Shown: positions 10,701-64,000, numbered from the stretch's first letter. The stretch: 64,000 nt of DNA from Macrostomum lignano (GCA_002269645.1 NIVC01000995.1:324100-388099); one strand, 5' to 3'. Notes: generated from the letters alone by a model not told the origin. Made by a program: numbers and translations.

Positions 10701-13700
10701 CCCAACCAAGCCACCAGATCCCCAACCAAGCCACCAGATCCCCAACCAAGCCACCAGATCCCCAACCAAGCCACCAGATCCCCAACCCAGCCACCAGATC
10801 CCCAACCAAGCCACCAGATCCCCAACCAAGCCACCAGATCCCCAACCAAGCCACCAGATCCCCAACCAAGCCACCAGATCCCCAACCAAGCCACCAGATC
10901 CCCAACCAAGCCACCAGATCCCCAACCAAGCCACCAGATCCCCAACTAAGCAACCAGATCCCCAACCAAGCCACCAGATCCCCAACCAAGCCACCAGATC
11001 CCCAACCAAGCTACCAGATCCCCAACCAAGCCACCAGATCCCCAACCAAGCCACCAGATCCCCAACCAAGCCACCAGATCCCCAACCAAGCCACCAGATC
11101 CCCAACCAAGCCACCAGATCCCCAACCAAGCCACCAGATCCCCAACTAAGCAACCAGATCCCCAACCAAGCCACCAGATCCCCAACCAAGCCACCAGATC
11201 CCCAACCAAGCCACCAGATCCCCAACCAAGCCACCAGATCCCCAACCAAGCTACCAGATCCCCAACCAAGCCACCAGATCCCCAACCCAGCCACCAGATC
11301 CCCAACCCAGCCACCAGATCCCCAACCCAGCCACCAGATCCCCAACCAAGCCACCAGATCCCCAACCAAGCCACCAGATCCCCAACCAAGCCACCAGATC
11401 CCCAACCAAGCCACCAGATCCCCAACCCAGCCACCAGATCCCCAACCAAGCCACCAGATCCCCAACCAAGCCACAAGATCCCCAACCAAGCCACCAGATC
11501 CCCAACCAAGCCACCAGATCCCCAACCCAGCCACCAGATCCCCAACCAAGCAACCAGATCCCCAACCAAGCCACCAGATCCCCAACCAAGCCACCAGATC
11601 CCAGACCGATTAAAGCAGACTCAACTCGTCTCAATAAAATCGCAGTTCGGGGTCTGGGCCAAGAACAACTCTGGCGGCATCGCTTTGATCCGAGGCGGCC
11701 TCAGAAGCAAGCTCCCAATTTTGCGCGTGCTTACCTTTATGGTAAGTGGATTCTTGAGAATACATCTGCAGCTTTTACTCTCCAGCTATCATGCTAAATA
11801 ATTATTAAAATGAAAAAAATAATCAAATGTGCATACGAGCGTAGATAAGATATGAGTCGTTCTACCATAGATATGAGTCGATCTACCATAGGTACGAGTC
11901 GTTCTACCATAGATACGAGTCGTTCTACCATAGATATGAGTCGATCTACCATAGGTACGAGTCGTTCTACCATAGATACGAGTCGTTCTACCATAGATAT
12001 GAGTCGATCTACCATAGGTACGAGTCGTTCTACCATTGATACGAGTCGTTCTACCATAGGTACGAGTCGTTCTACCATAGGTACGAGTCGTTCTACCATA
12101 GATATGAGTCGATCTACCATAGGTACGAGTCGTTCTACCATAGATAAGAGTCGATCTACCATAGATACGAGTCGATCTACCATAGATATGAGTCGATCTA
12201 CCATAGATATGAGTCGATCTACCATAGATATGATTCGATCTACCATAGATACGAGTCGATCTACCATAGATGCGAGTCGATCTACCATAGATACGAGTCG
12301 TGCTATCATAGATAAGAGTTCAGAAATAGTTTTGATATAAATCAATTACTTAATATTAATGATTGATCTCTCTGCCTGAATGCCCGATAATTTTACAGCG
12401 TCAGCCCTTCACGATGGCCTCGCCAACTGAGTACTACGGCTTCAGCATCAGCGTGCTGAATCATCTGAGCGCCGGCCTATTCGAGTGGGACGTGGTGCCT
12501 GTGGCTGAAAATGGCGACCTGCTGCCGCTGCTGCGCCAAGGGGTCAGTGATGGGATTTGAATAGCCAGTCCCTCCCAGAAAAAACCGATATCCCAATCCT
12601 ACCGGATAATCTATTGATGACATCCATGATTATCCCTCAATTATTCATAATAATCTATTAATAACCCATCGATAATCCTTCGATAATCCCTTGATAACCT
12701 TCGATAATCCCTTGATAATCTTGATAATCCCATAATAATCCTTCGATAATCCCTTGATAATCTTGATAATACCATGAGAATCCTTCGATAATTCCTTGAT
12801 AATACTGATAATCCCTTAATAACCCATTGATAATCCACTGATAATCCATTGATGATCCCTCGATAATCCTGTTCCAGGCTGGCGATCTGATAGCCAACCC
12901 CATGCAGATGCCGTTAGACAACATCAAGAACGACTCAAACGTTAGCTACTCCTCCTGGCCGCTGATGTACACCAGCGTGTCGGCCATGGGCTACGCGGAG
13001 AGTCCCAAGCTGAGCTTCCTCAGTCCGCTGTTCCCGTTCTCCTGGAACGTCTGGCTCGCCGTAGTCGTGGCTTTCGTGATCCTGTCGGCGACTCTCTACT
13101 CCATAGACAAGATAAGCCCGAATGATTACAGGCGACCGAAGTTCAGCATCTCGGAGTCCGTGTTCTTCGTCTATTCATCCTTCATGATGTCCAAGCTGAG
13201 CGCCAAGGCTATCAAACCGTCGTCAAGGATATTCATCTTAATCCTGTGGTTCGCCTCGCTGATGTACTGCACCACTTACGGCACCAACGCCTTCTTCCTG
13301 CTGATCCGCAGCAACCGAGCTTTGCCGTTCACCTCGCTGGACGGGCTGTACAACCAGAGCGGCAGGTACTACCGGGTCCTGGTCGAGAACAGCACCAGCT
13401 CCGGGATCCTGGCCGCTCAGCCTGAAGGATCTGTCTACAGGAAGCTGGCCACCGCCGATCTGTGGGTCGAGTCGGAGGAGGCGGCCCTGGCGCTAATAAA
13501 GAACCAGACGGCTCTGCCAGATGGTCGGCAGCCAGTTTACGTCGGCGACGGCGCCGCAATCAGCTACGCGGTGGCGAAGTCCTGCGACCTGATGATGGCC
13601 GGCAGCAATGAGCTGTACAGGCCGTTGTTCCTGGCGATGCGGGCAGGGCTGGACCCGCAGCTCCGGCGGACCATCAACGACAGGATTCAGAGCATGTCTG

Positions 13701-15192
13701 ACCGGGGTCTGCTGGACCAGTACAAGGACACGTGAGCTACCCAGTTATTTTGCAGGGGGCTTTGGTACTGCCGCTAATCTCAGTCGACAGCCAGTCCCAG
13801 GCCCACTCCGCTGACTCGGATTCGTACGCAGGCACGCGCTCACACAGGGTGTACAGCGGCCCTGACTTTCTCATTGTCAGGCATGTACACTCTCTGCGCT
13901 GCAGGGGGCTCCGGGCATCCCGACACAGCGGGGAGGCGTCGCCGCCCATTTCTTAAACACCTGGCGAACACGGCAGCCGGTGCTGCGGTGTCGCGCAGGG
14001 AGATCCGGTGGTGCAGGTGTCCGCAGTGCGGTCCTCCTCCGGAGAGTCCATTAGAAGGACTCTGCCCCCTATAGAGATAAGCACCTGGGATTCCATGAGC
14101 TGATCACCTGGGATTCCATGAGCTGATCACCTGGGATTCCATGAGCTCATCACCTGGGATTACATGAGCTCATCACCTGGGATTCCATGAGCTCATCACC
14201 TGGGATTCTATGAGCTTATCACCTGGGATTCCATGAGCTGATCACCTGGGATTCCATGAGCTCATCACCTGGGATTACATGAGCTCATCACCTGGGATTC
14301 CATGAGCTCATCACCTGGGATTCTATGAGCTTATCACCTGGGATTCCATGAGCTGATCATCTGGGATTCCATGAGCTGATCATCTGGGATTCCATGAGCT
14401 GATCACCTGGGATTCCATGAGCTCATCACCTGTGATCCCATGAGCTCATCACCTGAGATTCTATGAACTGAGCACCTGGGATACCATGAGCTCAGCACTT
14501 GGGATTCAATGAGCTGATCACCTGGGATTCCATGAGCTGATCACCTGGGATTCTATGAGCTCATCACCTGGGATACCATGAGCTCATCACCTGGGATAAC
14601 ATGAGCTCATCACCTGGGATAACATGAGCTCATCACCTGGGATAACATGAGCTCATCACCTGGGATACCATGAGCTCATCACCTGGGATACCATGAGCTC
14701 ATCACCTGGGATAACATGAGCTCATCACCTGGGATACCATGAGCTCATCACCTGGGATAACATGAGCTCATCACCTGGGATAACATGAGCTCAGCACTTG
14801 GGATTCCATGAGCTGATCACCTGGGATACCATGAGCTCAGCACTTGGGATTCCATGAACTCATCACCTGAGATTCTATGCAATGGGCGCATTGATATTAA
14901 ATAATATCTTTCATTCAATTCAAATGCAACCCTCCCAACCCGACTCAGTTACTGGTCGGAGATAAAATGCTCATCAAACGACTATCTGATCAACGCGAAG
15001 GAGCTGAACTCAATCCATATCGAGCAGGTGTCCGGCATTTTCATAGTGCTGGCCTGCGCACTGGGCCTGTCCTTCATTGTGCTGCTGCTTGAGCACGCGT
15101 TCTACCAGCTGCAGCTGTACTGGCACCGAATGGCAAGTTCTAGTGTGAAATATGGAATTTTGAGTAGTCAGTTTTTTCAGTGGATGAATTAA
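4759..15192 (+). CDS. Divergent ionotropic glutamate receptor family subunit (multi-exon)
   Basis: Exons with GT/AG: 4759-4858 (signal peptide MSQPNPGFLRSLFATILLLTIAASAAKSQTIKI), tentative 4971-4995, 5589-5684, 5725-5818, ~7894-8166 (HLIIGGYNGTVSAIASELGIPYY), 9013-9182, 9300-9353 (FWIITDL), 9583-9708, 9801-9914 (GILGQLHF..GTRRN), 11619-11741, 12399-12542 (QPFTM..YYGFSISVL), 12878-13731 (FLSPLFPFSWNVW-M1, M2, M3, S2) and 14949-15192 (YWSEIKC...SGIFIVL-M4). Order ATD-S1-M1-M2-M3-S2-M4 is typical of iGluRs. Phase of the 5818/7894 junction is unresolved. Confidence 0.85.
5905..7690. repeat. 20-bp intronic minisatellite (gtgtcactagaaacacaggg)
   Basis: Visible tandem array in an iGluR intron. Confidence 0.95.
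8195..8945. repeat. 15-bp minisatellite (ctgagtgacagtgtc)
   Basis: Visible tandem array just after the donor at 8166/8167. Confidence 0.95.
9987..11601. repeat. 20-bp minisatellite (ccaagccaccagatccccaa)
   Basis: Visible tandem array; source of the WLGIWWLG ORFs. Confidence 0.95.
11845..12310. repeat. 21-bp minisatellite (atagatacgagtcgatctacc)
   Basis: Visible tandem array. Confidence 0.95.
12600..12870. repeat. Degenerate gataatcc-type short tandem repeat
   Basis: Visible in the intron before exon 12878. Confidence 0.8.
14078..14875. repeat. 23-bp minisatellite (cacctgggattccatgagctgat)
   Basis: Visible tandem array in the last iGluR intron. Confidence 0.95.
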
Positions 15193-25400: not shown

Positions 25401-28400
25401 AGACAGTGGCGCCTCACTAAGAGACAGTGGCGCCCCACCAAGAGACAGTGGCGCCCCACCAAGAGACAGTGGCGCCCCACCAAGAGACAGGCGCGGGCAC
25501 CAAGTTAAGTTTCACTGGCGCTCCTCAGGGCTGAGGCCCCTTGCAGTTAAAAGTGAACTGTACGCTCGTAGTACATAGTCTGCCCATCAAGCGCAAGGGC
25601 TTCAGGAACCAGCGGACGCAGAAATCAAATCTATAGTCGATCGATCTCACAGGGTGTACAGAGGCCCAGACTTTCACATCTTTAGGCAGTGGAACTGAAT
25701 GCAGACCTTCTCCCTTCTTACACCTAAGCTACCTGGATAAAGTTTTACATTAATTTTGCAGAGCGTGTCGAACTACCTGATCCTGAGCCTGGCTGTCGCC
25801 GACCTGATGGTGGCCACCCTGGTGATGCCCATCTGCGCCCTGAAGGAGATGTCCAAAGTCTGGTGGCTCGGTAAGATGTTAATTCGCTTGAATACTGAGT
25901 TGCTCACTGCTTAACCGTAGTCTCAAACTGAGTCACTAACTGCTCTATCAGTCTCAAACTGAGTCACTAACTGCTCTATCAGTCTCAAACTGAGTCACTA
26001 ACTGCTCTATCAGTCTCAAACTGAGTCACTAACTGCTCTATCAGTCTCAAACTGAGTCACTTACTGCTCTATCAGTCTCAAACTGAGTCACTAACTGCTC
26101 TATCAGTCTCAAACTGAGTCACTCACTGATCTATCAGTCTCAAACTGAGTCACTAACTGCTCTATCAGTCTCAAACTGAGTCACTAACTGCTCTATCAGT
26201 CTCAAACTGAGTCACTCACTGCTCTATCAGTCTTAAACTGAGTCACTAACTGCTCTATCAGTCTCAAACTGAGTCACTTACTGCTCTATCAGTCTCAAAC
26301 TGAGTCACTAACTGCTCTATCAGTCTCAAACTGAGTCACTCACTGATCTATCAGTCTCAAACTGAGTCACTAACTGCTCTATCAGTCTCAAACTGAGTCA
26401 CTCACTGATCTATCAGTCTCAAACTGAGTCACTAACTGCTCTATCAGTCTCAAACTGAGTCACTCACTGCTCTATCAGTCTTAAACTGAGTCACTAACTG
26501 CTCTATCAGTCTCAAACTGAGTCACTCACTGCTCTATCAGTCTCAAACTGAGTCAGTCACATCACAAGGCAATTTTCATTCAGTACTGTTATTGGGTCGA
26601 ATCTGTCCAATGCCTGGATGCAGGGTCCATCACCACTCAATCGATTTTCACCAACACTGTTAGGCGCCTCAAGTGCTTTTCCTTGTCAGTCAGCCTAGCA
26701 CCGCGTCATTTATTAGCGTCAGCGTATTCGGTGTAAAACAAAGGCGAAAGTACCAGCTATATAGACAGCGGAACACCATCGCAACGCAGCCAGGCCTCGT
26801 CATCATCATCAGTCGGAATTTCCACCCCATACCTCTCCCTCAACCCCCTCTCTCCCTCTCGCCTGTTTCCTTACTAATTCTTTTCAAGCATCGCCAGTCG
26901 CGTTGGCGGGGGACGCCCAGACGTAAAAAATAGCTGGCGTTGGAGGCGGCGATGGAGAGCGGCGCATGCAGGCAGCGTCAGGTCGCCCGCTACACCGCCG
27001 GCCAGACCAAATAGGGAAGGGGGCGACCGGGACAACAACGGGAGGGCAAGAAGACTAAAGCTGGGACACACAAGAAGGAGCGTCTCCGGTCGCTGTTCTC
27101 CCCCTTTTCAAAGCTGTCGGGGCCTCCTGCAAGCTGTGCCAGCAAAAATATCTGGCGTAGTCCAGCAGAGGGAAAGAAAGAATTAGGCTATATAAACGCG
27201 TTTCCTGATCCTCCCAGCCCAGGGGGATCAGCTTTCGCTTTGGTTTGTTCCCTGTTTCCTAACCCGTTTCGCCAAGCCTTTACATCCGGACTGGAGTAGC
27301 TTTAATCCCCGATCCCACCTATCCCTGATGCCGTGTCGGACCGAGGCGGCCTTTGGGACAAAAAAGTTTAGCCAAGGGGGGCTGAATTAGACCAAGCCGA
27401 GAGGGTAGTGGGTGCTGGGTATAAGCTGGAATAACAGGAGGGGAAAGGGGGATCGAGAGATGAGGCTTCAAAAGCGGCTGGAATGCGACGGTTGGACACA
27501 GGAGGACCTGCGCAGACTGGGAAGCGATGGGACCAGCTGATTGAACTCCGTCAGTTGATCTGCTGGCCGTGGGGGGGGGGGGTAAATCAGACGCCTTGGG
27601 CTGTCACTGACCAGGCAGTGGCTTGCGCGCACTTATAAATTTATATTTAATTTATATTTAACTACAATCCAATTGAAGAGCAGCCGGCAGTGGGGGGGGG
27701 ACAGATGGCAATAATAGTCTGCTGAATGAGGCCACGGTAGTTAAAGCGAACTATTGGGTTGAAATGCAAATGAATAGGAGACCGTATTTCTATATAATAA
27801 CTAGCATCGTTATGATATATCTCTAGCTGCGCAGAAACTCAAGTGTTCCGATAATCCTTTCCTCCCTTATTTCCAGACTTACGAGCGTTATGGCTAAGCA
27901 TGGCAAAAGAGGCTTGCCGCTGTTGCCTGTTATGCAGGAAAATGCGCAAAATAATTTGAAATTTAATCTTATTTACGATGCTTATGGGGAAGCGGCATGC
28001 TTAAAATTTTTTTTAATAAGTTTGAAAGTCGTTATAAAAACAAAAATTTATTAACCTGGCCCTTATGGTTTTATAAGTACACAGACAGGCACAGGGCAGA
28101 GTGGCGGGGTGAGGACTGGTACTGGCAGAGTGGCGGGGGTGAGGACTGGCACTGGCAGAGTGGCGGGGTGAGGACTGGCACTGGCAGAGTGGCGGGGTGG
28201 GGACTGGCACTGGCAGAGTGGCGGGGTGGGGACTGGCACTGGCAGAGTGGCGGGGGTGAGGGCTGGCGCTGGCAAAGTGACGTGGTGAGGCCTGGCGCTG
28301 GCAGAGAGGCATTACAGCAACAAATGTGGGCACAGTAAAACGAGCAGCGGTTTAAATATTCTTAAGCCATTTTTAGCCGAAAATTGCAGGTATAAAGCAC

Positions 28401-29341
28401 TAATAAATCAGCCCTACTCTACAGGTGTGCACCTGTGCGACCTGTGGACCTGCCTAGACGTGCTGTGCTGCACAGCTTCGATCCTGCACCTGGTTGGCAT
28501 AGCGGTTGATCGCTACTGGGCCGTCACCAACATCAACTACATCAGAGCCCGCACCGGACGCCGCATCGGCCTGATGATCGCCGCCATTTGGATCATCAGC
28601 GCCGCGATCAGCGCCCCGGCGCGCTTCTGGCGCATGAGGAAAGAGCCGGACGAGTGTCGCATCAACGAATCGCCAGCTTACACCGTATTCTCAACTGTTG
28701 GCGCCTTCTACCTGCCCATGCTGTTCATGATCGGCATCTACCTGAGAATTTATCACGCCGCTCGCAAAAGAATTCGTCGGAAAGCCTTCAAGCCAAGCCA
28801 GCCGGCGGCTTCGGCCGCGGCAACTGCCGCTGCGACGGCGCAGCAGCAGCAGCAGCAGGCGGCGAAAAAATCCACATCCGATTCCGACCACACGCCGGAA
28901 GTGTCCAGTGGCGCAGGTCCCTGTCAAACGACGTCATTTAGCGCTACTACTAAAAAGCTGAACTCAAAGCAGAAAAAACAGCAGCAGAAACAGCTACAAC
29001 AAAACGGTCGAGCAGAAGCTCAGGAGCGCATCACCATCCAGTCCAAAGCGGCTATGCAGCGCGAGAGGCTGGAACAGAAACGAGAAAGGAAGGCAGCAAG
29101 AACCCTGGCGATAATTACAGGCTGCTTTCTGTTCTGCTGGTTCCCCTTCTTCGTTCGAGCCATAGTCTGTCCCTTCTATTCGCCGCTGTGCACCGACCTC
29201 ATCTCCGAGACTGGGCACTCGTTGATCCAGTGGTTGGGCTACACAAACAGCCTGCTCAATCCAGTGATATACACCATCTTCTCGCCGGACTTTCGCAGCG
29301 CATTTAGCAAGATCCTATTTGGACGTTACCGACGAAGGTGA
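19453..29341 (+). CDS. HTR1: Serotonin (5-HT1-like) class A GPCR, 3 coding exons
   Basis: Exons 19453-19722 (TM1 GNVFVVAAIILERNLQ), 25762-25870 (SVSNYLILSLAVADLMVATLVMP) and 28425-29341 (CDLWTCLDVLCCTASILHL, DRYW, GAFYLP, ERKAARTL, CWFPFF, NSLLNPVIY). Phases join cleanly; TM3 Asp of aminergic receptors is present. Confidence 0.9.
19735..21395. repeat. 28-bp minisatellite (gaggatctgggaggctggcccagcaact)
   Basis: Visible array starting just after the donor at 19722. Confidence 0.95.
22350..23520. repeat. ~37-bp minisatellite (ggtgtctcaaccgagtctctctagctgatgtctcacc)
   Basis: Visible tandem array. Confidence 0.95.
24352..25490. repeat. 21-bp minisatellite (aagagacagtggcgcctcact)
   Basis: Visible tandem array. 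Confidence 0.95.
25918..26555. repeat. 31-bp minisatellite (cagtctcaaactgagtcactaactgctctat)
   Basis: Visible tandem array after receptor exon 2. Confidence 0.95.
28090..28305. repeat. ~29-bp GC-rich minisatellite (ggcactggcagagtggcggggtgaggact)
   Basis: Visible short array. Confidence 0.85.
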
Positions 29342-44204: not shown

Positions 44205-49418
<5,214 letters not shown>

Positions 49419-49509
49419 GCCTGCTGCAACCGGAAGGATTGGCATAAATCCCACCTAGTAGTGCTCTAGTGCTTAGGTATGAGCACAGATAATATAATGA
49501 GTGAACGCA

Positions 49510-53409: not shown

Positions 53410-54273
53410 TGATGTGTTCCTTATTACCCGACTTTCGATAATCAAGGAACAATCACTTCTAGCTCAACAGCTAGGCAACCCAGTAAGTCAAACGAAGGTA
53501 TTCAATTACCTTTAATCCGGATTTGAATTTCTTGAGTAGTTCTCGCTAGGAACTTGTCAGTAGATCTCGTAGATCAGGCGCCTTGATTCTTCAGTTGCTC
53601 TGGTCCTGGTTCCTCTTGTACTTCCGATAAGTTCTTCCGGCCGGTATCTTCCGTCAGGACCAATCAGAGGCCTCGTAGCAACAATGGGTACCCTGCGCCA
53701 AACTGCGGTCTAAATTAAGCCTCCTTCTTCTAGCAGTGCCTCTATGCACTCTAGGTATAGCTCCGGAAACCACTGATAGTCCTCTAAGATCTATCAGGGG
53801 CAGTCCTTCTGGAGACTGCAACCAATGGAGTCTAAACAGACTCAAGAGTCTCAACAGACTCAATTAGACTCAAGTCTCAATAGACTTGAGCGAGACGTCT
53901 CTAACACAACGGGCGCAAATAAGGAAGGCTTACCGCAACAACTCGACCGAGTCTCGATTGACTTGGTAGATCAGGAAGTCCTCCTAAGGCTTCCTCTTCG
54001 GAGCGCTCCTCTTCCGTGGGGAGAATGGCTCCGGTACCGCTTCAGATCGCTTGTATTTATAGACAAGTTTTTGATCCAAAATAGTATCATGACAATTCAC
54101 GTGTTGCGCTAAAAGGGGAAAATGGCTCATGGCGTATTATTCTGGTAACATCTTTTTCTGGTAGCGTGATTCATTCAAAGCTTAGGCGCACATGCGTGTA
54201 CTTACTTACTTATAGTAGTATTATACGATTATCTTCTTTTTTCCTTTTTTAACGGGAGGTAGAACACTCTACA
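53410..54273 (-). repeat. 3' LTR (864 bp)
   Basis: Matches 63138-64000 by eye except for a 1-nt indel in a T-run. Starts TGTAGAGTGTTC and ends GAACACATCA on the - strand; TATAAA lies at 54056-61 (-). Confidence 0.9.
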
Positions 54274-54277
54274 AAAT

Positions 54278-54288
54278 CTCCCTTTTTT
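54278..54288 (-). other. Polypurine tract candidate
   Basis: AAAAAAGGGAG, 4 nt upstream of the inferred 3' LTR start TGTAGAG. Confidence 0.6.
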
Positions 54289-54453
54289 ACGAAAAAACTC
54301 GTCCCGAGTTTTAACAATAAAATTCTGTGGTGATCAGTTAATATAGGAAATAAACAATTGATTTTGTGCGCGTCTAGTGAAGCGAGGGTTTGGTCAAAAC
54401 TCTAAAAACTTTTCAGTACATATTGCGGTCAAAACTCGAATATCGCGTAGACA

Positions 54454-54828
54454 TCAAGTGGCATCAGGTTTGATCCGACACCACTTTCGAAACGTGCAGT
54501 CTCGCGGCATACTATTACATAAGGGGCATCCTATAACGCCCCTACTAGCGGTTTGCTTCAAACAGTGCATGCAAATAAAATGTTGGTGGTTACAATATTG
54601 AAACGTGCGCCAAGAATAACAATAGGCACATTGTCGCAAACTATCTCTACAGAGGGGACAATTCTGCCATGGCTGAATATAATGTGAATCGCTTAAACAT
54701 TGTCCGCAAACTTTATGTTCGTTGATGCAAATAGTCGGTGGCTTGACAGCCAAGTCATCAGTTAAACATATCGGGCAGTCATATAGCTGCTGAGGCTGGG
54801 GCGCCTGTTTTGACAGTGCGTTGCCCAT
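54454..54828 (-). CDS. Retroelement accessory protein: N-myristoylation motif plus two RING fingers (124 aa)
   Basis: The first ATG (54828; A at -3, G at +4) gives MGNALSK; the track's start at 54840 is a TTG. Two C-x2-C...C-x3-H-x2-C-x2-C...C-x2-C motifs follow. Lies between pol stop and PPT. Confidence 0.8.
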   Translation of the reverse strand: MGNALSKQAPQPQQLYDCPICLTDDLAVKPPTICINEHKVCGQCLSDSHYIQPWQNCPLCRDSLRQCAYCYSWRTFQYCNHQHFICMHCLKQTASRGVIGCPLCNSMPRDCTFRKWCRIKPDAT

Positions 54829-54948
54829 AATTGTCGTCAATTTGTCGCTGTCTTTGTGTCGCTCGGATTAGTCGCCTTTTACGACAAGCTTGCGAAGCTG
54901 TAGTGCTATTCTTTATCCCGGTCACTACACGGGGTTGTTCTCTAAACT

Positions 54949-57900
54949 CTAGCGTGGTCGTAGGTTGTAGCCATGTGGCTGGCTCACATCTGTCGTTTGA
55001 GTCTCCTCGTGCTTCGTCGCGATGTGGCGGTTCGTTGAACGCGTGCGATCAGCGTTGTCTAATGTCGGTAGAAACGTCGCTGTGTCAGTGTTGATCTTCT
55101 TTAGTCGATGAATGTGTACGTAGAACTGGTGCTGATGTGGATCTTGTACATTAGCCAGGCGTGCCGTTGTTGGTGACGTTAGTTGGACCACTCGATAGGG
55201 TCCTTTGTACTTCTGTGCATGTTTATGCGTCTGCTGTGGCGGGTAGTGTAGGTAGACGATGTCGCCGGCCGTCAGGGTTGTCGATCTCGCGTCGTTGCCG
55301 GTGGTCAGAGCCACCTGGTTGTCAATGTTGTGCTTGGCGATCTTCCATGCGAGGTGTAGTTGCGTGACGAATTTCTGAATGGAAGTCGGTACTTCCACGT
55401 ACTGCGATGGTAGCAATTGCTGTGCGAGCAGATTCGGCGGTTGGAAGTCTCGTCCAAACATTAGGAAGAATGGCGTATTGTCCGTTGATCGATGAATAGC
55501 GCTGTTGTAGGCCATTGTTACAGATTGCAGGTAGATGATCCAGTCTTCCGGCTGTTGGTGCGCGAAATGTGTAATCATCTCGTGCAGGTTGCGGTGAAAC
55601 CGTTCAACCATGTTTGCCTTCGGATTGTAGGTCGATGTGTAGATCTGCGTAATGTTGAGAATCCTTACGACTTGCTGAAACAGTTGCGATGTAAACTGCG
55701 ATCCGTTGTCCGATGTGAGGTTCTTCGGCGTGCCGTACTTGCAAATGATTTCGTTGAAGAAACTCATTGCCACTGTCTGAGCTGTGATGTCCGGTATCGG
55801 TATGGCGATAGCAAACTTCGAGAAGATATCCAAGGCGGTTAGAATGTAGGTGTAGGCGATGCCCTGGAGACAGCTCGGTGGTAGCGGTCCGGTGATGTCG
55901 ATGCTTAGACAGTCCATTGTAGTCGACTTCGGAATGGACTGTAGCTGCGGTTTCTGTCGTCGTCCTGTCTTTGATGCAGCACATGAATGGCAGTTGTTGC
56001 AATACTGCTTGATGTCGCCGTACATAGTTGGCCAAAAGTAGTATTGTTCCACTCTCGCGATGGTCTTTGCTGCCGACAGGTGTCCAGCGAGTGGGTTGTC
56101 GTGTAGCTCGTTGAGAATTGCTTGCCGAAACGAATATGGTATGTAGATCTTGGGTTTATTGTCGCTCATCCAGTAGAGCCGTGACTTATTGATTGTTAGG
56201 TGTTGTCGTTGCTTGCGTAGGAATTTTCGTTCCATGGGACTGAGTTTGATGTTCTTGTCGTCGTCTTTAACCGCTTGGTAGAAGTTGTCGCGCTCGGTTT
56301 CATCCACCAACTCCTTGATGTTAGGGATTGGATGAATGGCGTTGACTTCATAGGCTCTTGACAGGGCGTCCGCGGCTTTGTTGGTAATTCCTGGTTTGTA
56401 GACGAGTTTGTAGTTGTAATCCTGGATCTTGAGTGTCATTCTGATGAGTCGGTTGTTGGTCTGTCCTTTTGTAGTTACGACGTAGGTCAATGGTGCATGA
56501 TCCGTGCGTACTATCGTCTGTATTGGAGAACCATAGATGTAGTAATGAAACTGTCGCAGGGCGAACAAGACTCCTAGTAGCTCTCGTTCCGTAGCTGACC
56601 ACTTTGTCTCATTTGGTTTGAGTGCTCGACTGACGTAAGCAATAGGTCGTTCCTTCTTGTCCTCGGTTTCCTGTAGTAGGACTGCTCCGAGTCCCGTTCC
56701 TGAGGCGTCTGTCTCGATGATGAAGGGCTTGTCGAAGTCCGGATGCTGTAGCAGTGCGTCTGATGTCAGCTGTCGTTTGATTTCGTCGAAACTTTCCTGT
56801 TGTCTCTGTGTCCAGTTGTCTTGCTTCCATTTGTCGAACTTGAGCAGGTCGTACAGTGGCTTTGCTGTCTTTGCGAAGTTAGGTAAGAACTTCCTGAAGT
56901 ATTGCGCAAGTCCAAGGAATGATTGGACCTTCGTTATACTGGTTGGCGTAGGAAACTTCTTCACCTTTTCCACGTTGTCTGGGTCCGGTGAGATTCCTTT
57001 GGCTGTCACCTGATGTCCCAGGTAACGCACGTTGTCTCGGAAGAATTTGCATTTAGTTGGTTGTAGCTTCAGACCTTGGCGTTGAATGAGCGCTAGGGCC
57101 TTCTCCGTAGCTTCGTAGAGTCGCTCGAAATCCTCTCCGTAAGCTAAAATGTCGTCGACATAGTGCAGCAGGTTCGTGCATCCTGCTAGCATGTATGCTG
57201 TTAGTCGACTCATCGTTGCTGGGCTGTTGCTAAGTCCCATCGGCGATCGATTGTACTCGTATACTTGTCCATTGTAGGTTTTGAAAGCCGTGTACTGTCG
57301 TGACTCTTTCTCGATTTCAATTTGCCAAAATCCATGACGTAGGTCGAACACCGTGAACAATTTTGCCGTGTTGAGCTTTGCTAGTAGTTCGGAGATCTTC
57401 GGTAGGCTTTGCTGATCCGTCGGTATGTACTTGTTCAACAGTCTGAAGTCGCATACGAGTCGTCTTTCGTTTGTCTCCTTCTTCTGTACCAGTAGGCACG
57501 GTGAGGAGTAAGCCGAAATAGCTTTGCTGATGATGCCGTGCTTTAGCATTTTATCGATGATTTCGTCAAAGTGTTGTTGCAGATGCTTGGCGATCGGGTA
57601 CGGCTTGCACTGAATTGGTTCCGTGTGCGGCAGAAGTTTGATTTCCTGTTTGATGTCCTTGGCTCGTCCGATGTCGTAATCATGATGGCAGAAGGCTTCG
57701 TTGTACTTCCACAACAGCTGTCGAACTTTCCTCTTTTGCTGTTCCGTAATCGGGCTGTCATCCAAATTGATCTTCTTTTGAAATTCTTCCTCTGTTAGTC
57801 GTGGAGTCGCTTGTTCAATCAGCATAACCGATGCTTGGGTGTTGAGATGACCGATGCACATTCCTTGTCGTAGATGAACCGTTTCTGTGTTCGGGTTGAA

Positions 57901-60648
57901 GATTTGTACTGGCAGTTGCTTATCCTTTGCAACCAGCACTAGTGCCGTAGGCATCATGATTTGATGTTTTGCCGTGACTCTCCTGTGTGGATCAAATATC
58001 ATTGCTTCATCTGCCGCGCTGGTCGTTTTCGCTCTGACCCAGCATGCGCTTTCAGGCTGGATAATGACATCTTGCTGCAGAGTTACTTTCGGTAGTACTC
58101 GAATCTGGTTGATCAGCGGTTGCTCCACCGTGTCGATCCTAAACGTTTGCTTGTTGAAGTCGAAGGTCAATGGTAGTTGAAGCTGCTTGAACGTGTCGAT
58201 TCCAACGATGACGTCTTGGTTTGGTAGTCTGTCGATGATGTACGTCGGGACCGTCAGCTGTTTATTAGCAATTTTCAAGTCGATATCTGCTTTTCCTAGG
58301 ATGTTGAGTGAATGTCCTCCTGCTCCTGCAACTGCGATTGCTGCTGGTCGTACCGCGAGTCGTAGCTTGTTGCATAATTGTTGCGAGATGACTGTGATCG
58401 AGCTGCCTGAATCCAGTAGTGCTCGACATGGCAAGTTGTTGACAATGACCTGAGCCATTGCTTTGCCAATCTCGGCGTGTAGCGTACAGACGTAGTTTTC
58501 CGGCCATTTTGGCTCGTGCTGTTCTGCTTGATAGTTGGGTGGTTGTATCCTTGGTGCCGTTGGTGTTGTCGGAATCGATGGATATAGCCGCGTTGCTAGT
58601 GTCGGTTGCCCTTGAACCTCACAATGTGCAGTTTCTGTTAGTTCTAAACTGTTGTCGCTTTCCGTTGTCGTTCTTTGCATTATGGCATTCACTGTCTTCT
58701 TAGCTCTTGGACAAGTTTGACTGAAGCACCGTACGATCGATGAAATGATGAAGATTGCCGTGACAATCCACACAATGCAAGCACCGTAGAAGATGAATCC
58801 TTGATAGAGACTGCCTCTTCCATTGAGCAGCTCCCAGAAGCTATTTGTCCAAAATGATTTGATGGCGCTGTCCATTGAAACAAGGACGGGAAATCTTCCT
58901 GTCCCGGTTCCTTTGTCCTTTCTTGTGAACAGCTGGTGAATCATCTTGCGTTGGGTGATGAACGCTTGCAAGAAGTCGTTGATCGTCCATCCTGGTGTTA
59001 TCTCGTCAAGTTGGATATCGGCGAATGGCGTATACTTCGTTCTGTTGAATCGGATTTTCAAATCCTCCATGTCGTAGTTTTCGTCGACGATTACTTCCGG
59101 TTCTGTGACGTTTGCTGTCGTTCCAGTTGTTTTGATGACGTGTAGTGCATTGTCCAGTTGATAGTAGTTTACTGCCGTGGTGCAAGGTCTCGGTATTGCG
59201 GTGCCAACGATGATGTTGTGTACCGTGTCCAAGAATCCCTGAATTCGTTTTCCTTCGTAGAACGCTTCAATCCTTGGCTTATCGTAGCAGGTTGTTGACG
59301 TGTTTGACGGCAAGATGTTAAAGTGCTGTATCGGCGTGCACTTGTATATCAACAGATGCTCGTATATTGGAACTGCCAAAACGTTCGTCATTCCGGTGAT
59401 TTTACGAAAAGTCATCGTAGGGTTGACATAGTAGTTTTGTCTGGCATAATTTAAGTTGATTGCGTGCATTTTGCAAGTTAGCTGGACCAGTGTTCGATGC
59501 AAGTGGTTTAACTGGTTGTGTAGATTGTGATCCAAAGCCGTTATCTTTGCTGACAACAGCCGGTTTGACACCAGTTTGGGACGTTCGATGTCACGTCGTC
59601 TTCTATTCTGTTTTTCTTGTTGCTGATACGTTCCATTGATGATTGCCAAGAAGGTTTGTTTGTCTTCATCCTTTACGTAGACTGGTATCTCTTGTTCCGA
59701 GATGAATAGTGTCTTGTCTGTATCCTTGCATTTCAGTTTTTGCTCGACTGGTTTCTTTTGAAACGTCAGTGCCAAGTCTCCTGACTTTGCCAAAAACGTA
59801 TTTGACAGTAGTCCTCCTTCAACTGTGTGATACTTTTGAAGCTTGCAGTCAATTTCCGGCTCAACTTCCCACGCGAAGAAGTATTGTCGTGATTTGTACG
59901 GTTCCTCATAGTGTGATTGTGCTCTGTGCTCAATCTGCCATCGATAGTCTTGATGATATGTTGGACTCAGTGGTAGACTGTGTAGTTCTTCCTTCCGTAG
60001 AATCGGCGTTGGACACCATCCTTCACTGTATCGACATTCGCTTAGTTGCAGCTGTAACGATTCCATTTTCTCGTACGGATTGTAGTAGAATGGAATATTT
60101 CTGATCAAGTAGCTGTTGCGTGCCATATATTCTTTCCATTTTCCGAAGAAGTGAATATATCGACCGTTGGCTGAATTCTTTGTTCTGAACAGCTGTGCGT
60201 TGCCGACCTTCTCATCTGGTTCCAGTTCACCATCCTTTGAAAATAGTGTTTGATTCCATTGTAGGCATTCCGCGTGCGACACATGTAGCTCATGTTGTTT
60301 AAATCGGATCCGGTTCCATTGTCCGCGCCAAACTTTTTCCACCAGGTGCTTGTCTCTGAAGCATACTATCCCGTGTTGTCGATGCTTCTTGATGTTAGCC
60401 TTGTAGAGATCGAGTGTAATCTTCTTTGGTTTTGTCTGGTTTGTCTTGAAGTAACTGCATTTGATGTCGGTTGGTATCTTGTAGATCATCGGTTGGATAT
60501 GCGCATCCGTTGGACAAATCATTGGCTTTTCCGTTGCCGTTGCTTTGGCGACTACTGCTATCAGTAGTATCACGATGATCCAGAATAGCCAGTTTTTCCA
60601 CTTCTTGGATTTTGCCGTTGTCCTTGCTGCATTGGCTGCGATCGCCAT
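54949..60648 (-). CDS. Env-Pol polyprotein (signal peptide, class III-like glycoprotein, TM, protease, RT, RNase H, integrase), 1899 aa
   Basis: Uninterrupted ORF. Signal peptide WLFWIIVILLIAVVAKA; furin RRRR|D aa349-352; TM aa617-639; LLDSGS aa744-749; YVDD aa1163; DAS...ERE...DH RNase H; H-H-C-C zinc finger, IDITGP, SDNGSQF, VERFH and GPY integrase motifs; C-terminal YNLRPR. Confidence 0.95.
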   Translation of the reverse strand: MAIAANAARTTAKSKKWKNWLFWIIVILLIAVVAKATATEKPMICPTDAHIQPMIYKIPTDIKCSYFKTNQTKPKKITLDLYKANIKKHRQHGIVCFRDKHLVEKVWRGQWNRIRFKQHELHVSHAECLQWNQTLFSKDGELEPDEKVGNAQLFRTKNSANGRYIHFFGKWKEYMARNSYLIRNIPFYYNPYEKMESLQLQLSECRYSEGWCPTPILRKEELHSLPLSPTYHQDYRWQIEHRAQSHYEEPYKSRQYFFAWEVEPEIDCKLQKYHTVEGGLLSNTFLAKSGDLALTFQKKPVEQKLKCKDTDKTLFISEQEIPVYVKDEDKQTFLAIINGTYQQQEKQNRRRRDIERPKLVSNRLLSAKITALDHNLHNQLNHLHRTLVQLTCKMHAINLNYARQNYYVNPTMTFRKITGMTNVLAVPIYEHLLIYKCTPIQHFNILPSNTSTTCYDKPRIEAFYEGKRIQGFLDTVHNIIVGTAIPRPCTTAVNYYQLDNALHVIKTTGTTANVTEPEVIVDENYDMEDLKIRFNRTKYTPFADIQLDEITPGWTINDFLQAFITQRKMIHQLFTRKDKGTGTGRFPVLVSMDSAIKSFWTNSFWELLNGRGSLYQGFIFYGACIVWIVTAIFIISSIVRCFSQTCPRAKKTVNAIMQRTTTESDNSLELTETAHCEVQGQPTLATRLYPSIPTTPTAPRIQPPNYQAEQHEPKWPENYVCTLHAEIGKAMAQVIVNNLPCRALLDSGSSITVISQQLCNKLRLAVRPAAIAVAGAGGHSLNILGKADIDLKIANKQLTVPTYIIDRLPNQDVIVGIDTFKQLQLPLTFDFNKQTFRIDTVEQPLINQIRVLPKVTLQQDVIIQPESACWVRAKTTSAADEAMIFDPHRRVTAKHQIMMPTALVLVAKDKQLPVQIFNPNTETVHLRQGMCIGHLNTQASVMLIEQATPRLTEEEFQKKINLDDSPITEQQKRKVRQLLWKYNEAFCHHDYDIGRAKDIKQEIKLLPHTEPIQCKPYPIAKHLQQHFDEIIDKMLKHGIISKAISAYSSPCLLVQKKETNERRLVCDFRLLNKYIPTDQQSLPKISELLAKLNTAKLFTVFDLRHGFWQIEIEKESRQYTAFKTYNGQVYEYNRSPMGLSNSPATMSRLTAYMLAGCTNLLHYVDDILAYGEDFERLYEATEKALALIQRQGLKLQPTKCKFFRDNVRYLGHQVTAKGISPDPDNVEKVKKFPTPTSITKVQSFLGLAQYFRKFLPNFAKTAKPLYDLLKFDKWKQDNWTQRQQESFDEIKRQLTSDALLQHPDFDKPFIIETDASGTGLGAVLLQETEDKKERPIAYVSRALKPNETKWSATERELLGVLFALRQFHYYIYGSPIQTIVRTDHAPLTYVVTTKGQTNNRLIRMTLKIQDYNYKLVYKPGITNKAADALSRAYEVNAIHPIPNIKELVDETERDNFYQAVKDDDKNIKLSPMERKFLRKQRQHLTINKSRLYWMSDNKPKIYIPYSFRQAILNELHDNPLAGHLSAAKTIARVEQYYFWPTMYGDIKQYCNNCHSCAASKTGRRQKPQLQSIPKSTTMDCLSIDITGPLPPSCLQGIAYTYILTALDIFSKFAIAIPIPDITAQTVAMSFFNEIICKYGTPKNLTSDNGSQFTSQLFQQVVRILNITQIYTSTYNPKANMVERFHRNLHEMITHFAHQQPEDWIIYLQSVTMAYNSAIHRSTDNTPFFLMFGRDFQPPNLLAQQLLPSQYVEVPTSIQKFVTQLHLAWKIAKHNIDNQVALTTGNDARSTTLTAGDIVYLHYPPQQTHKHAQKYKGPYRVVQLTSPTTARLANVQDPHQHQFYVHIHRLKKINTDTATFLPTLDNADRTRSTNRHIATKHEETQTTDVSQPHGYNLRPR

Positions 60649-61368
60649 TCGTTATCTTCCATGTCCGCATCATATTCTTTCGGTTGTTCCATTGGCTGAT
60701 CCAGGCGGAAGGCTTCTGATTCGCTTTGCTTTTTGGTTATTTCATTATCTTCGTCTGCGGCTTCTTCCGATGTTTCCGTGTTTCACTCCATTGCGTTGTA
60801 TCTTTTCTCTGTCTTGTAGTCGACCGTTTGAATATAGGCTTCACCATTTCGTTTGTATCGGATCTCGTAGCATCGTCGCTGTCGGAACTCGCTTTCTTTT
60901 CACCTGTTCTTTTCCATTTCTTCATCTTTCCATTGTATTTCGTAGCCTTGATCGCTGTCGGAACTTAGATTCTCCGCTCCGGTTCTTCCTGCATTCCTCT
61001 TTCGGCTTGGTAGTCGTTCGTGTCATCACGCACCTCGCAGTCGTGGTCGTTGCCGTAACTTCTACATTCTTCTTCTTCTTTCATTTCTTTGTCTTTCATG
61101 CTCGTTTTGTCGTCATCCACTGTTGTCGATTCATAGTTGTTTTCTTCGCCGGTTTTCATCTTTTCTTCGTTGCCGATGTCGCTCTCCGCCTCCTCCCTTG
61201 TCTTGTGATTTACTTTCTTCCTGTTTTCTCTGCTGTCTCCGGTGGTCTCTTTTAATTTGATCATTTCGTTTCATCGTCTCTTCTGTTTGTCAGTGTTGTC
61301 CTCGTGCGTCGTCTTCTTTTCGATCAGCTGATGTCAAGTTCCGGACTGTGAAGTCCATTTCCAAGTCG

Positions 61369-62427
61369 TCAATTGTGAACACTTGCTTTCTTGCTTTCAT
61401 TTCCGGTGTGAACGTGATGGCATTCGCGTATCGTGGCATTGCTTGCGTCGGCTGTCTTGTGTGTATCTGACGTTGCGTGGCCTGTAGCCATTACTTCTGA
61501 AGCGGCCTTCGTTTCCGAAGCGGCCATCATTTCCGGAGCGGTCATTATTTCCGAAGCGTCTATCATTTCCGAAGCGTCTTTAGCCTGTTGTTGGCGATTT
61601 TGATATTGCTGCCATGGTTTCTGCGGCTTCTGATTGTTGAATATCTGTCGCGGCTTGTCGTATCTTGTTGACCAATGAGGACAATTAATCTGATAATGTC
61701 CTTCTTGTCCGCAGTAGTAACATCTGGCTGAGGCTTGTTCATTTCGTCTTTTTTGTTCGGCGATAGCAGCTGTCTGGTGCTGCATTAACTTGTTTAGTTG
61801 CTGCGTCAGTTTCTGCACTTCATTGTTGCCTGTCGTCATTAATGGGGCACTGGCTTCCCATTGCATTCCGCAACGCAAAAGGTCTTCTTCGGTTTCGATA
61901 TTTTCACGCAAAAGTCTATCCCGAAGTGACGGCTGTGCGTTGTTTATTACGTGCAGGATGAGGTTTTGTTCACGATCCATCAATCGTTGTCTTTCTCTGG
62001 CGGCCAATTCTGCCGCTCCCAGTGGTGGTTGGTCCGCAGCTTGCAGCGGTGGCTGATGCAGTGCCTTAATTATCTGGCGGATATCGTCCACAAAGGCGAG
62101 GAAGGATTCTGTTGCTTGCATCCTTCTGTTATGCAACTTGTGCAGCAGCACTGATCTGTTTGTGCCGCAACGGTTGAAATGCGCGCGCAGTTGAATGATT
62201 AGTGCTGGATAATTTTGCTGTGTTGCCGCATCCAGCTTGCCGTAAATTTCTCGCGCAGTACCTTGGAGAAGAGGTGGCAGCAGCTGTGCCTTCTCTGGAT
62301 TTTGTAGGTTGTATTCCCTACATACCAGGTCAAAATGGTCGACAAATGTGTTAAAATCTTTCTCCATCGAGAAAGTACCGACCGTTTCTTTGATGTCTCT
62401 GTGTACCGTTGGATTGCGCCGCGCCAT
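61369..62427 (-). CDS. gag: Gag (capsid-like domain plus CCHC zinc knuckle)
   Basis: F..F...F..VC....LLPPLLQGTAREIY...L...F capsid-like N-terminus; CYYCGQEGHYQINC knuckle at 61681-61722. The C-terminus may be frameshifted. Confidence 0.9.
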   Translation of the reverse strand: MARRNPTVHRDIKETVGTFSMEKDFNTFVDHFDLVCREYNLQNPEKAQLLPPLLQGTAREIYGKLDAATQQNYPALIIQLRAHFNRCGTNRSVLLHKLHNRRMQATESFLAFVDDIRQIIKALHQPPLQAADQPPLGAAELAARERQRLMDREQNLILHVINNAQPSLRDRLLRENIETEEDLLRCGMQWEASAPLMTTGNNEVQKLTQQLNKLMQHQTAAIAEQKRRNEQASARCYYCGQEGHYQINCPHWSTRYDKPRQIFNNQKPQKPWQQYQNRQQQAKDASEMIDASEIMTAPEMMAASETKAASEVMATGHATSDTHKTADASNATIRECHHVHTGNESKKASVHN

Positions 62428-63117
62428 GTTGTTGATAGGTAGAACGGTAGTTCAAGATCTGGATCGATTTGTAACGGATCGTCCAGTGTGGTGTTTGCCT
62501 CGGAATAAACCTCGACTGTAACGAATTGCCTTGTGGTGTCGATTTGTTATTCGCTGGCCTCGGATGCGGTGTGGCTTGCTGCCACTGGTTGTCCTCAAAT
62601 GAACTTGTTCTGTTCGCTTGCTGATTTCGCACTTATGCGGCGTCCCGCAAAGTGTATCTTCAAGTTGAAGTGGACTTGTCTTCTTGCTTTGCAAAGTCTT
62701 TTTCTCTTCTTTGACTCTCTCTCTTTTGTCAATTAACTCTGCTCTCCACGAAGTTTCAATTAATTTCGGTTTTGTTTTAGTTTTTGTGCCGGCAAAATGT
62801 TTCAGTTATTTTTTGTTTGTTTTGCGTCGACGATTTTTTATTTTGGTTTGTTTTCAGTGTACCGACGAAGTTAATTTCGGTTTTGTTTTAAACTCACACT
62901 TGCTCGAGCTCGTCAAAACAAAATTTAACACGCGTGCTCAAACTGTACTCAAATTTGACAGGTGCTCAAACCTGTACACCAAATTTTACTCGAGTTTCAA
63001 AACGTAACGGACTTAAAAAGTGTTAACTCTAACACGTGCGCGCAAAATTAATGAAGTCGCTCTGTCGTCACTTTACAATAGCTTGGCCAGGCTATTGCTC
63101 AAGGTTTGAGTAGTGCC

Positions 63118-63135
63118 GAGAGGGCGAGATCACCA
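63118..63135 (-). promoter_or_regulatory. Primer-binding-site candidate
   Basis: TGGTGATCTCGCCCTCTC begins 2 nt after the 5' LTR ...CA; cognate tRNA not identified. Confidence 0.5.
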
Positions 63136-63137
63136 AT

Positions 63138-64000
63138 TGATGTGTTCCTTATTACCCGACTTTCGATAATCAAGGAACAATCACTTCTAGCTCAACAGCT
63201 AGGCAACCCAGTAAGTCAAACGAAGGTATTCAATTACCTTTAATCCGGATTTGAATTTCTTGAGTAGTTCTCGCTAGGAACTTGTCAGTAGATCTCGTAG
63301 ATCAGGCGCCTTGATTCTTCAGTTGCTCTGGTCCTGGTTCCTCTTGTACTTCCGATAAGTTCTTCCGGCCGGTATCTTCCGTCAGGACCAATCAGAGGCC
63401 TCGTAGCAACAATGGGTACCCTGCGCCAAACTGCGGTCTAAATTAAGCCTCCTTCTTCTAGCAGTGCCTCTATGCACTCTAGGTATAGCTCCGGAAACCA
63501 CTGATAGTCCTCTAAGATCTATCAGGGGCAGTCCTTCTGGAGACTGCAACCAATGGAGTCTAAACAGACTCAAGAGTCTCAACAGACTCAATTAGACTCA
63601 AGTCTCAATAGACTTGAGCGAGACGTCTCTAACACAACGGGCGCAAATAAGGAAGGCTTACCGCAACAACTCGACCGAGTCTCGATTGACTTGGTAGATC
63701 AGGAAGTCCTCCTAAGGCTTCCTCTTCGGAGCGCTCCTCTTCCGTGGGGAGAATGGCTCCGGTACCGCTTCAGATCGCTTGTATTTATAGACAAGTTTTT
63801 GATCCAAAATAGTATCATGACAATTCACGTGTTGCGCTAAAAGGGGAAAATGGCTCATGGCGTATTATTCTGGTAACATCTTTTTCTGGTAGCGTGATTC
63901 ATTCAAAGCTTAGGCGCACATGCGTGTACTTACTTACTTATAGTAGTATTATACGATTATCTTCTTTTTCCTTTTTTAACGGGAGGTAGAACACTCTACA
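63138..64000 (-). repeat. 5' LTR (863 bp visible; ends at the window edge)
   Basis: Copy of 53410-54273; flanks diverge immediately outside TGATGTG. Confidence 0.9.

Follow-up and report, generated by a model that had tools for sequence, protein, structure and literature searches.

Retroelements with the gene order GAG-ENV-POL and an envelope protein (Env) of the herpesvirus glycoprotein B (gB) type have been described by Chary and Hayashi in Nematoda, Bryozoa and Platyhelminthes; the accessible sections of that paper state that these elements are not monophyletic and, in the discussion, that the assembly and cell entry of gB-Env retroelements are unknown (PMC13524379). According to the same sections, Env also precedes pol in the nematode endogenous retroviruses (NERV) (PMC13524379). 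Here we consider an element of this kind from the free-living flatworm Macrostomum lignano, lying on the minus strand at positions 53,410 to 64,000 of a 64,000-nucleotide stretch (GCA_002269645.1 NIVC01000995.1:324100-388099), the whole of which we call the window. It is real, belongs to the Ty3/gypsy retroelements of GAG-ENV-POL type with a gB-type Env and has been amplified recently; comparison with its relatives gives one open reading frame (ORF) for Gag, Env and Pol, followed by an RNA element and one to several ORFs with two RING domains each. Sacco et al. 2022 (J Gen Virol) reportedly found a continuous gag-env-pro-pol ORF in NERV, with a Nyamiviridae/Chuviridae-like glycoprotein, and the extra ORFs of NERV are said to encode either an Upf1-like helicase or a small hypothetical protein; RING arrays are not known among them. 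By that definition the continuous ORF is a feature shared with the family described here, and one Env homolog is annotated to the nematode Panagrolaimus.

The element itself is already catalogued. The entry Platyhelminthes_Rhabditophora_Mlig_errantivirus_2 (Ty3/gypsy, ENV_HSV, 16 copies; PMC13524379, supplement 1 row 1445), the only one for this host in the accessible catalogue, agrees with the window element in strand, in the offsets of the long terminal repeats (LTRs; 0-863 and 9727-10591) and in the 12-mer of the primer-binding site (PBS), and is placed in reverse transcriptase (RT) clade S and integrase (IN) clade H (PMC13524379). Gene order and Env type, the former offered as new in the initial annotation, are thus those of the published GAG-ENV-POL, HSV/gB-type 'errantiviruses' (PMC13524379). 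The published entry rests, however, on the one copy with a mis-assembled gag-env junction, and the accessible text, unlike our reading, does not state that gag, env and pol form one ORF (PMC13524379). The words RING, myristoyl, late domain, ESCRT, PTAP, polyprotein and budding are absent from its main text, and its figures or online annotation may note some of them (PMC13524379). Nor are the RING ORFs, the tail late motifs or the RNA element mentioned in the literature searched, outside which most subscription papers lie, the NERV paper included. Overall, the element and its gene order are known, and the RING array, the late motifs of the Env tail and the RNA element are apparently undescribed. 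The element reads as follows, from its 5' to its 3' end.

63138..64000, minus strand: 5' LTR, 863 bp, coinciding with the contig end
63124..63135, minus strand: PBS, the same 12-mer as in the published catalogue row
61586..62427, minus strand: gag, a capsid-like domain from the start and one CCHC zinc knuckle (amino acids 236-249)
60628..61585, minus strand: acidic Gag-Env linker, about 300-365 amino acids in other copies, here broken by private frameshifting indels
60523..60603, minus strand: predicted internal signal sequence or first transmembrane segment (TM1) before Env, by hydropathy; in other copies, residues ~615-639 of their single polyprotein
58810..60519, minus strand: Env ectodomain, predicted class III fusogen (gB / chuvirus-G type) with a furin-like site, by profile and model
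58717..58809, minus strand: predicted C-terminal transmembrane anchor of Env (TM2), by hydropathy
58504..58713, minus strand: putative cytosolic tail from the Env anchor to the protease, with LYPSI, PTAP and PPNY, by sequence
58168..58458, minus strand: aspartic protease (PR; LLDSGS), by sequence and Pfam
56416..57486, minus strand: RT and RNase H (RH), by Pfam; nearest solved relative Ty3 RT (E 1.3e-64)
54952..56142, minus strand: IN (H2C2, core and C-terminal part), by Pfam
54864..54934, minus strand: non-coding element from the pol stop to the RING start, 71 nt; proposed H-type pseudoknot (4+7 bp) and two hairpins
54454..54828, minus strand: accessory ORF of 124 amino acids, short variant, with N-terminal MGxxxS and two tandem C3HC4-type RINGs
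54277..54288, minus strand: polypurine tract (PPT), the same in other copies
53410..54273, minus strand: 3' LTR, 864 bp, 863/864 columns the same as in the 5' LTR

The anatomy of LTRs, PBS, PPT and minus-strand ORFs given in the initial annotation stands, as do its near-identical LTRs, which differ by a single indel and carry TG...CA termini. Together with the order PR-RT-RH-IN, the Ty3-type RT and RNase H, the H2C2 integrase and a short target duplication (4 bp in 10 and 5 bp in one of the 11 other copies with both flanks readable), this is the constitution of Ty3/gypsy elements (Metaviridae); the duplication of the window copy itself is unreadable because the contig stops exactly at the 5' LTR. 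For the alternative family BEL/Pao, no Peptidase_A17 match is listed in the Pfam scan, and Gag has a sub-threshold DUF1759 match. Classical insect errantiviruses carry a separate F-type env ORF after pol; here Env is class III and precedes PR, and it is the gB-like class III Env between gag and pol that places the element among the GAG-ENV-POL gB-type errantiviruses. A search of the genome DNA, in which the best 18 of 201 candidates were scored, gave 15 full-length copies (95-100%), one partial copy and two at ~90%, and an Env search gave at least 76 matches; a polyprotein fragment in UniRef, 98% identical, is likewise annotated to Macrostomum lignano. Several contig pairs carry the same insertion flank (L007 with L008/L033; L009 with L012; the window with L002/L027, 22/22 nt on the 3' side), and since such pairs are duplicated loci or haplotypes, the copy counts overstate independent insertions. 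In the ~90% subfamily (L017/L018) the LTR ends are kept and U3 is different from that of the window copy (78% identity over 208-864, the first ~200 nt unaligned), and U3 is also unlike between L042 and L043. Many diverged copies lie close together on contigs C2121, C1130, C87 and C3033 of the genome set G000, possibly as nested clusters or loci resembling clusters that give rise to PIWI-interacting RNA (piRNA). Scans of IMG/VR found no relative, and a metagenome scan found one locus, an unrelated decayed gypsy.

As assembled, the window holds three ORFs, namely gag (61369-62427, 352 amino acids), env-pol (54949-60648, 1899 amino acids) and the RING ORF (54454-54828, 124 amino acids), and a design of three ORFs with separate Gag and Env-Pol was proposed for it at the outset. 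We reject that design. Sixteen frameshifting indel sites between 60,628 and 61,585 separate the window from every other full-length copy (14, L002-L015), among them L002/L027, which share its 3' flank. Contigs from four sequencing runs of four studies, whose RNA nature is a guess, have the sequence of the other copies and not that of the window; a single contig with 18 gaps spans the patch in three of the four runs, and six listed sites are at full depth in all four. The split between Gag and Env-Pol is a patch of assembly error. Among 17 copies scored (L016, L017 and L019-L025, being partial or overlapping, were left aside, and L017 has a break of its own between gag and env), zinc knuckle and Env share one frame in 13, Env and PR share one frame in 16 (in L014 by ORF continuity), and six retain a complete single Gag-Env-Pol ORF of about 2,500 amino acids. 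The fusion of Env in frame to Pol, as originally read from the window, therefore holds, and Gag belongs to the same chain.

The arrangement reaches beyond this family. A sister family (family 2, L046), with an Env 63% identical, has a single ORF of 2480 amino acids, a third family (P0004) one of 2852, and 10 of 50 distant Env homologs unite knuckle, Env and protease in one protein. The common design runs from capsid and nucleocapsid through the acidic linker, TM1, the Env ectodomain, TM2 and the tail to PR, RT, RH and IN, and after the polyprotein come the RNA element and the double-RING ORFs, from one to several in number; in all four polyproteins checked there are exactly two hydrophobic segments, and they flank Env. 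The expectation that the architecture would be conserved across copies and relatives is thus borne out for Env-PR (16 of 17 copies, the sister family and the third) and not throughout for the RING ORF, which is degenerate in one subfamily. Beside P0004 the same genome holds other Gag-Env-Pol families, their frames open over 2,700-2,870 amino acids (G000 contigs C270, C1672, C4280, C247, C759, C3266, C362 and C1512). None of the 12 joints listed in the run contigs has canonical minus-strand splice ends, and contigs cannot show the absence of splicing. In contigs of two studies a short env-like stretch abuts the beginning of the RNA element (window 54934-59816), which may reflect a derivative with an internal deletion.

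Over residues 1-230 Gag is similar to capsid clusters of retrotransposons (scores 0.89-0.92), and it has no matrix domain. The initial annotation took this capsid-first Gag as a sign that retroviral roles had been redistributed; it is the ordinary state of Ty3/gypsy elements. The 1899-residue ORF carries its signal or TM1 at amino acids 16-42, RRRR at 349, TM2 at 614-646, PTAP at 696 and PPNY at 703, as well as the RT active-site motif YVDD. Its Pfam match to Monjiviricetes_fusion (E 3.5e-5) is below the family cut-off; a profile of 40 Env sequences matches herpesvirus gB structures at E 3.7e-17, and an AlphaFold model of Env (mean predicted local distance difference test, pLDDT, 79.7) matches gB in Foldseek at E 1.1e-20, with TM-scores of only 0.22-0.35, perhaps because the domain arrangement differs between conformations. 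Because Env resembles gB as well as chuvirus-type G, the suggested origin of its modules in negative-strand RNA viruses is not shown. Crude, uncorrected ratios of nonsynonymous to synonymous change (dN/dS) are 0.01-0.02 for RT-RH, 0.10-0.12 for Env and 0.20-0.24 for the RING ORF, the latter two indicating purifying selection.

The tail between TM2 and the protease is where the late-domain-like motifs lie. PTAP, YPx(I/L) and PPxY are the motifs by which TSG101, ALIX and NEDD4-type factors, respectively, are recruited. The p6 region of HIV sits just before the protease, the same position as here; an insertion of Env near the Gag terminus may thus have left a segment resembling p6 on its far side. 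In family 2, PTAP and IYPKI lie between TM2 and the protease and PPPY just before TM1, and the P0004 tail has PSAP and LYPTL. PTAP and YPx(I/L) are kept in families 1 (that of the window) and 2, in a block of 100 amino acids that is just 41% identical. In the 50 distant homologs, from which P0001-P0003 were excluded as the own or a close family, 17 sequences without TM2 by the threshold applied and four with tails under 50 amino acids were dropped; strict motifs occur in 9 of the 29 remaining tails, where 2000 shuffles gave 1.1 on average and never more than 5, and their density is 3.06 per 1000 amino acids in tails versus 0.30 elsewhere. The placing of such motifs on the predicted cytosolic side of the Env anchor, one of the original claims, is upheld by its retention in the sister family and its enrichment in distant relatives.

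The RING ORFs differ in part from what had been expected of them. An ORF with an MGxxxS start and a RING is indeed present, but it holds two tandem RINGs and not one, and the form in the window is the short one of three (124, 144 and 222 amino acids); the 222-residue variant has an extra helical domain (best Z 6.5, uninformative for helical bundles) and is followed by a second double-RING ORF of 210 amino acids. The window has one RING ORF, the long variant and L046 have two each, and up to six RING matches follow one integrase. Among 102 strong matches (at least 90 bits, taken from at least 150 listed after two split halves were dropped), 84 begin within 700 nt of the end of an integrase match, the integrase list being a lower bound. 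Rows of three to six matches, known by match coordinates only, stand after an integrase or a first RING ORF on G000 contigs C4009 (39917-48270), C272 (407486-415283), C1063 (100876-102984), C1405 (270776-272831) and C391 (137451-139544). Expression by readthrough from pol can be dismissed, since family 1 has stops in frame between the two genes and in family 2 they are read in different frames.

Across five aligned RING ORFs that are only 21-39% identical, all 16 Cys/His positions are invariant, as is a PxCR motif after RING1 (P58 C60 R61) whose arginine we take to be the linchpin arginine of RING E3s. The best PDB matches are the RINGs of TRIM21, TRIM5 and BRCA1 (E 4e-5 to 3e-4), and on these two grounds the sequences suggest that the RING ORFs are accessory E3 ubiquitin ligases. 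RING2 matches arenavirus Z weakly (E 0.11-0.26), and the structural match to Z (Z-score 4.4, root-mean-square deviation 2.6, 49 aligned) is tied with many other RINGs, cellular ones included. Pfam zf-C3HC4_3 exceeds its cut-off in one of four RING ORFs, the rest being sub-threshold or without a match; Foldseek against viral models gave no match at E <= 0.001. Outside the Macrostomum lignano genome no RING homolog was found among 93 candidates, nor among 1258 with a profile, both searches being word-limited, and the Atlas look-alikes are mostly giant-virus RING clusters of low recognition. No late motif (PTAP/PPxY) occurs in the RING ORFs. The start MGNALS was read in 33 of 42 RING-pattern frames, all of family 1 and many redundant; Gly2 is confined to the first ORF of family 1, being absent from the first ORF of family 2 (which starts MDCP) and from the second of family 1, and none of the 24 matches at or below 60% identity reaches the N-terminal 10 residues. 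A subfamily (21 of 150 matches listed) has a stop at codon 71 of the RING ORF, and in both members read two zinc ligands are lost, while the polyprotein of L018 is open.

Between pol and the RING ORFs lies the 71-nt RNA element, whose counterpart in L046 is at 7685-7756. It is 92% identical between the families, against 58-72% in the adjoining coding DNA, and its 7-bp helix is kept in all 92 genomic pattern matches: 55 share one version, and in the other 37 both sides of a pair have changed in compensation. A control pattern gave no match. This covariation is one event and not significant (166 of 500 shuffles reach it), and folding without the pseudoknot is no better than in shuffles (z -0.3 and -1.7). 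Rfam gave no relevant match for the element; the two weak matches that it did give in 15.5 kb lie elsewhere and are unrelated. Hammerhead, twister, pistol and hepatitis delta virus (HDV) ribozymes, likewise without such a match, were rejected as identities. The element is not lost where the RING ORF is degenerate; it is kept there, with the compensatory change. A role in RING expression or genome packaging may be supposed, and recent exchange between the families is an alternative source of the identity. Family-2 RNA elements with RING ORFs also occur away from any listed match to Env or integrase (G000 contigs C301, C525, C1192, C2828, C2869 and C352), perhaps as non-autonomous derivatives or as candidates left unscored.

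Taken together, we think it probable that these parts work in concert. The polyprotein would be threaded through the membrane of the endoplasmic reticulum (ER) as a hairpin, with Gag and Pol cytosolic and Env lumenal, and Gag, Env and Pol would be made 1:1:1. Gag would be tied to the membrane through the internal signal anchor TM1, and a matrix protein would therefore be unnecessary. PTAP, YPx(I/L) and PPxY on the cytosolic side would recruit TSG101, ALIX and NEDD4-type factors, and with them the endosomal sorting complex required for transport (ESCRT), for budding; the particle would be matured by furin and the element's own protease, and the class III Env would fuse it into germ cells. The RING ORFs would be dispensable accessory E3 ubiquitin ligases, not a structural matrix, with one lineage membrane-targeted by myristoylation, and would most likely counter host defence or aid ESCRT sorting. 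More tentatively, and with distinct doubt, one may read the whole as a self-contained, non-retroviral way of budding: a twice-threaded polyprotein, a capsid anchored by the Env signal much as in structural polyproteins of the flavivirus or alphavirus type, late domains in the Env tail across GAG-ENV-POL lineages, and the element's own tandem-RING E3s, expressed via a pseudoknotted RNA, supplying ubiquitin or disarming defence.

Several observations weigh against our preferred model. Particle, protein, topology and ligase activity are predictions from sequence, and the transmembrane segments predictions from hydropathy; many copies are broken, although some of the breaks may be assembly errors. 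The homologs behind the 9 of 29 enrichment are related to each other; PPxY shifts its position, from after TM2 in family 1 to before TM1 in family 2; and the database matches of the RINGs are weak and generic. Late-like motifs can also be sorting or endocytosis signals, and strict ones are absent from 20 of the 29 distant tails. The last two points agree with a cycle confined to the interior of germ cells, in which Env is kept for assembly at internal membranes, with ER budding of the intracisternal A-particle (IAP) type, and the tail motifs serve sorting or degradation. Many near-identical copies need no extracellular step, and enveloped particles of this element are inferred from its genes. 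Against this stands Env itself, whose furin-like site, cysteines and fold are kept under purifying selection and therefore point to selection for fusion; we regard a purely internal cycle as unlikely, while giving it real weight.

The RING ORFs admit two other accounts. They could be neutral passengers, captured from a DNA virus or the host and merely carried along near the 3' end, as their degeneracy in one amplified subfamily, their varying length and number and their giant-virus look-alikes would allow. Their dN/dS, the invariance of the 16 zinc ligands at such low identity, and their retention in two families, repeated duplication and position behind a conserved RNA element make this improbable. 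The initial annotation saw in them a Z-like matrix, a myristoylated RING protein that would form a layer on the membrane and connect the envelope with the core. The MGNALS start, the weak alignment of RING2 with Z (a point that also counts against the ligase reading), a Gag without matrix domain and the purifying selection on the ORF speak for it. Arenavirus Z has one RING and C-terminal late domains and is essential. The ORFs here share with Z the N-terminal Gly motif (in family 1 only) and the RING fold, but they have two RINGs, a helical domain in the long form and no late motif, lack Gly2 in family 2 and in the second ORF of family 1, give no match at low identity that reaches the N-terminal residues, and range from one to six in number; in the degenerate subfamily the polyprotein remains open, with trans-complementation by other copies possible. 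We consider a Z-like matrix very improbable and no longer hold it as the leading reading: variable number, degeneracy in a subfamily and the restriction of Gly2 argue for an accessory gene family and not an essential matrix.

Known systems offer partial parallels to the model we prefer. In foamy viruses (Spumaretrovirinae), Gag carries no signal of its own for membrane targeting and relies instead on the long leader of Env, of type II, a functional likeness to the Env-dependent targeting proposed here; foamy Gag and Env are, however, separate proteins that bind each other, with the late motif in Gag, where we propose a covalent link with motifs after Env (PMC7828637). The window RT also matches Ty3 more closely (E 1e-64) than it does foamy Pol (E 3e-40). 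Lineage-specific extra ORFs are known from rotifer Ty3/gypsy elements (ORF3s) and from the MDG1 group (sORF2, often with an MGxxxS/T motif; PMC11952523), and they resemble the RING ORFs in being extra, but the accessible texts describe other protein types, namely lipases, exonucleases or small transmembrane fusogens (PMC5408684, PMC11952523); RING has no occurrence in the accessible text of the rotifer paper (PMC5408684).

Elsewhere the window holds a rhodopsin-family G protein-coupled receptor in a single long ORF (28289-29341, plus strand; 7tm_1 E 4e-46; amine-receptor-like by eye), a ligand-gated ion channel exon (12845-13735, plus strand; Lig_chan E 4e-15) and exons of the DNA primase large subunit (47938-49454, minus strand; DNA_primase_lrg E 9e-26 for 47941-48504). 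Minisatellite arrays are very dense over 1-46000, with periods of ~8-44 nt and 41 direct-repeat families, and no tRNA genes were found in the 64,000 nt.

The anatomy of this element thus gives a concrete model for GAG-ENV-POL retroelements, in which a covalent Gag-Env-Pol precursor would use its signal anchor instead of a matrix and carry its late motifs behind the Env anchor, the latter with statistical support in distant relatives. If the model is true, the double-RING ligases that such elements encode in an expanding array would add a new class to the accessory genes of LTR retroelements and would hint at host factors by which these are restricted.

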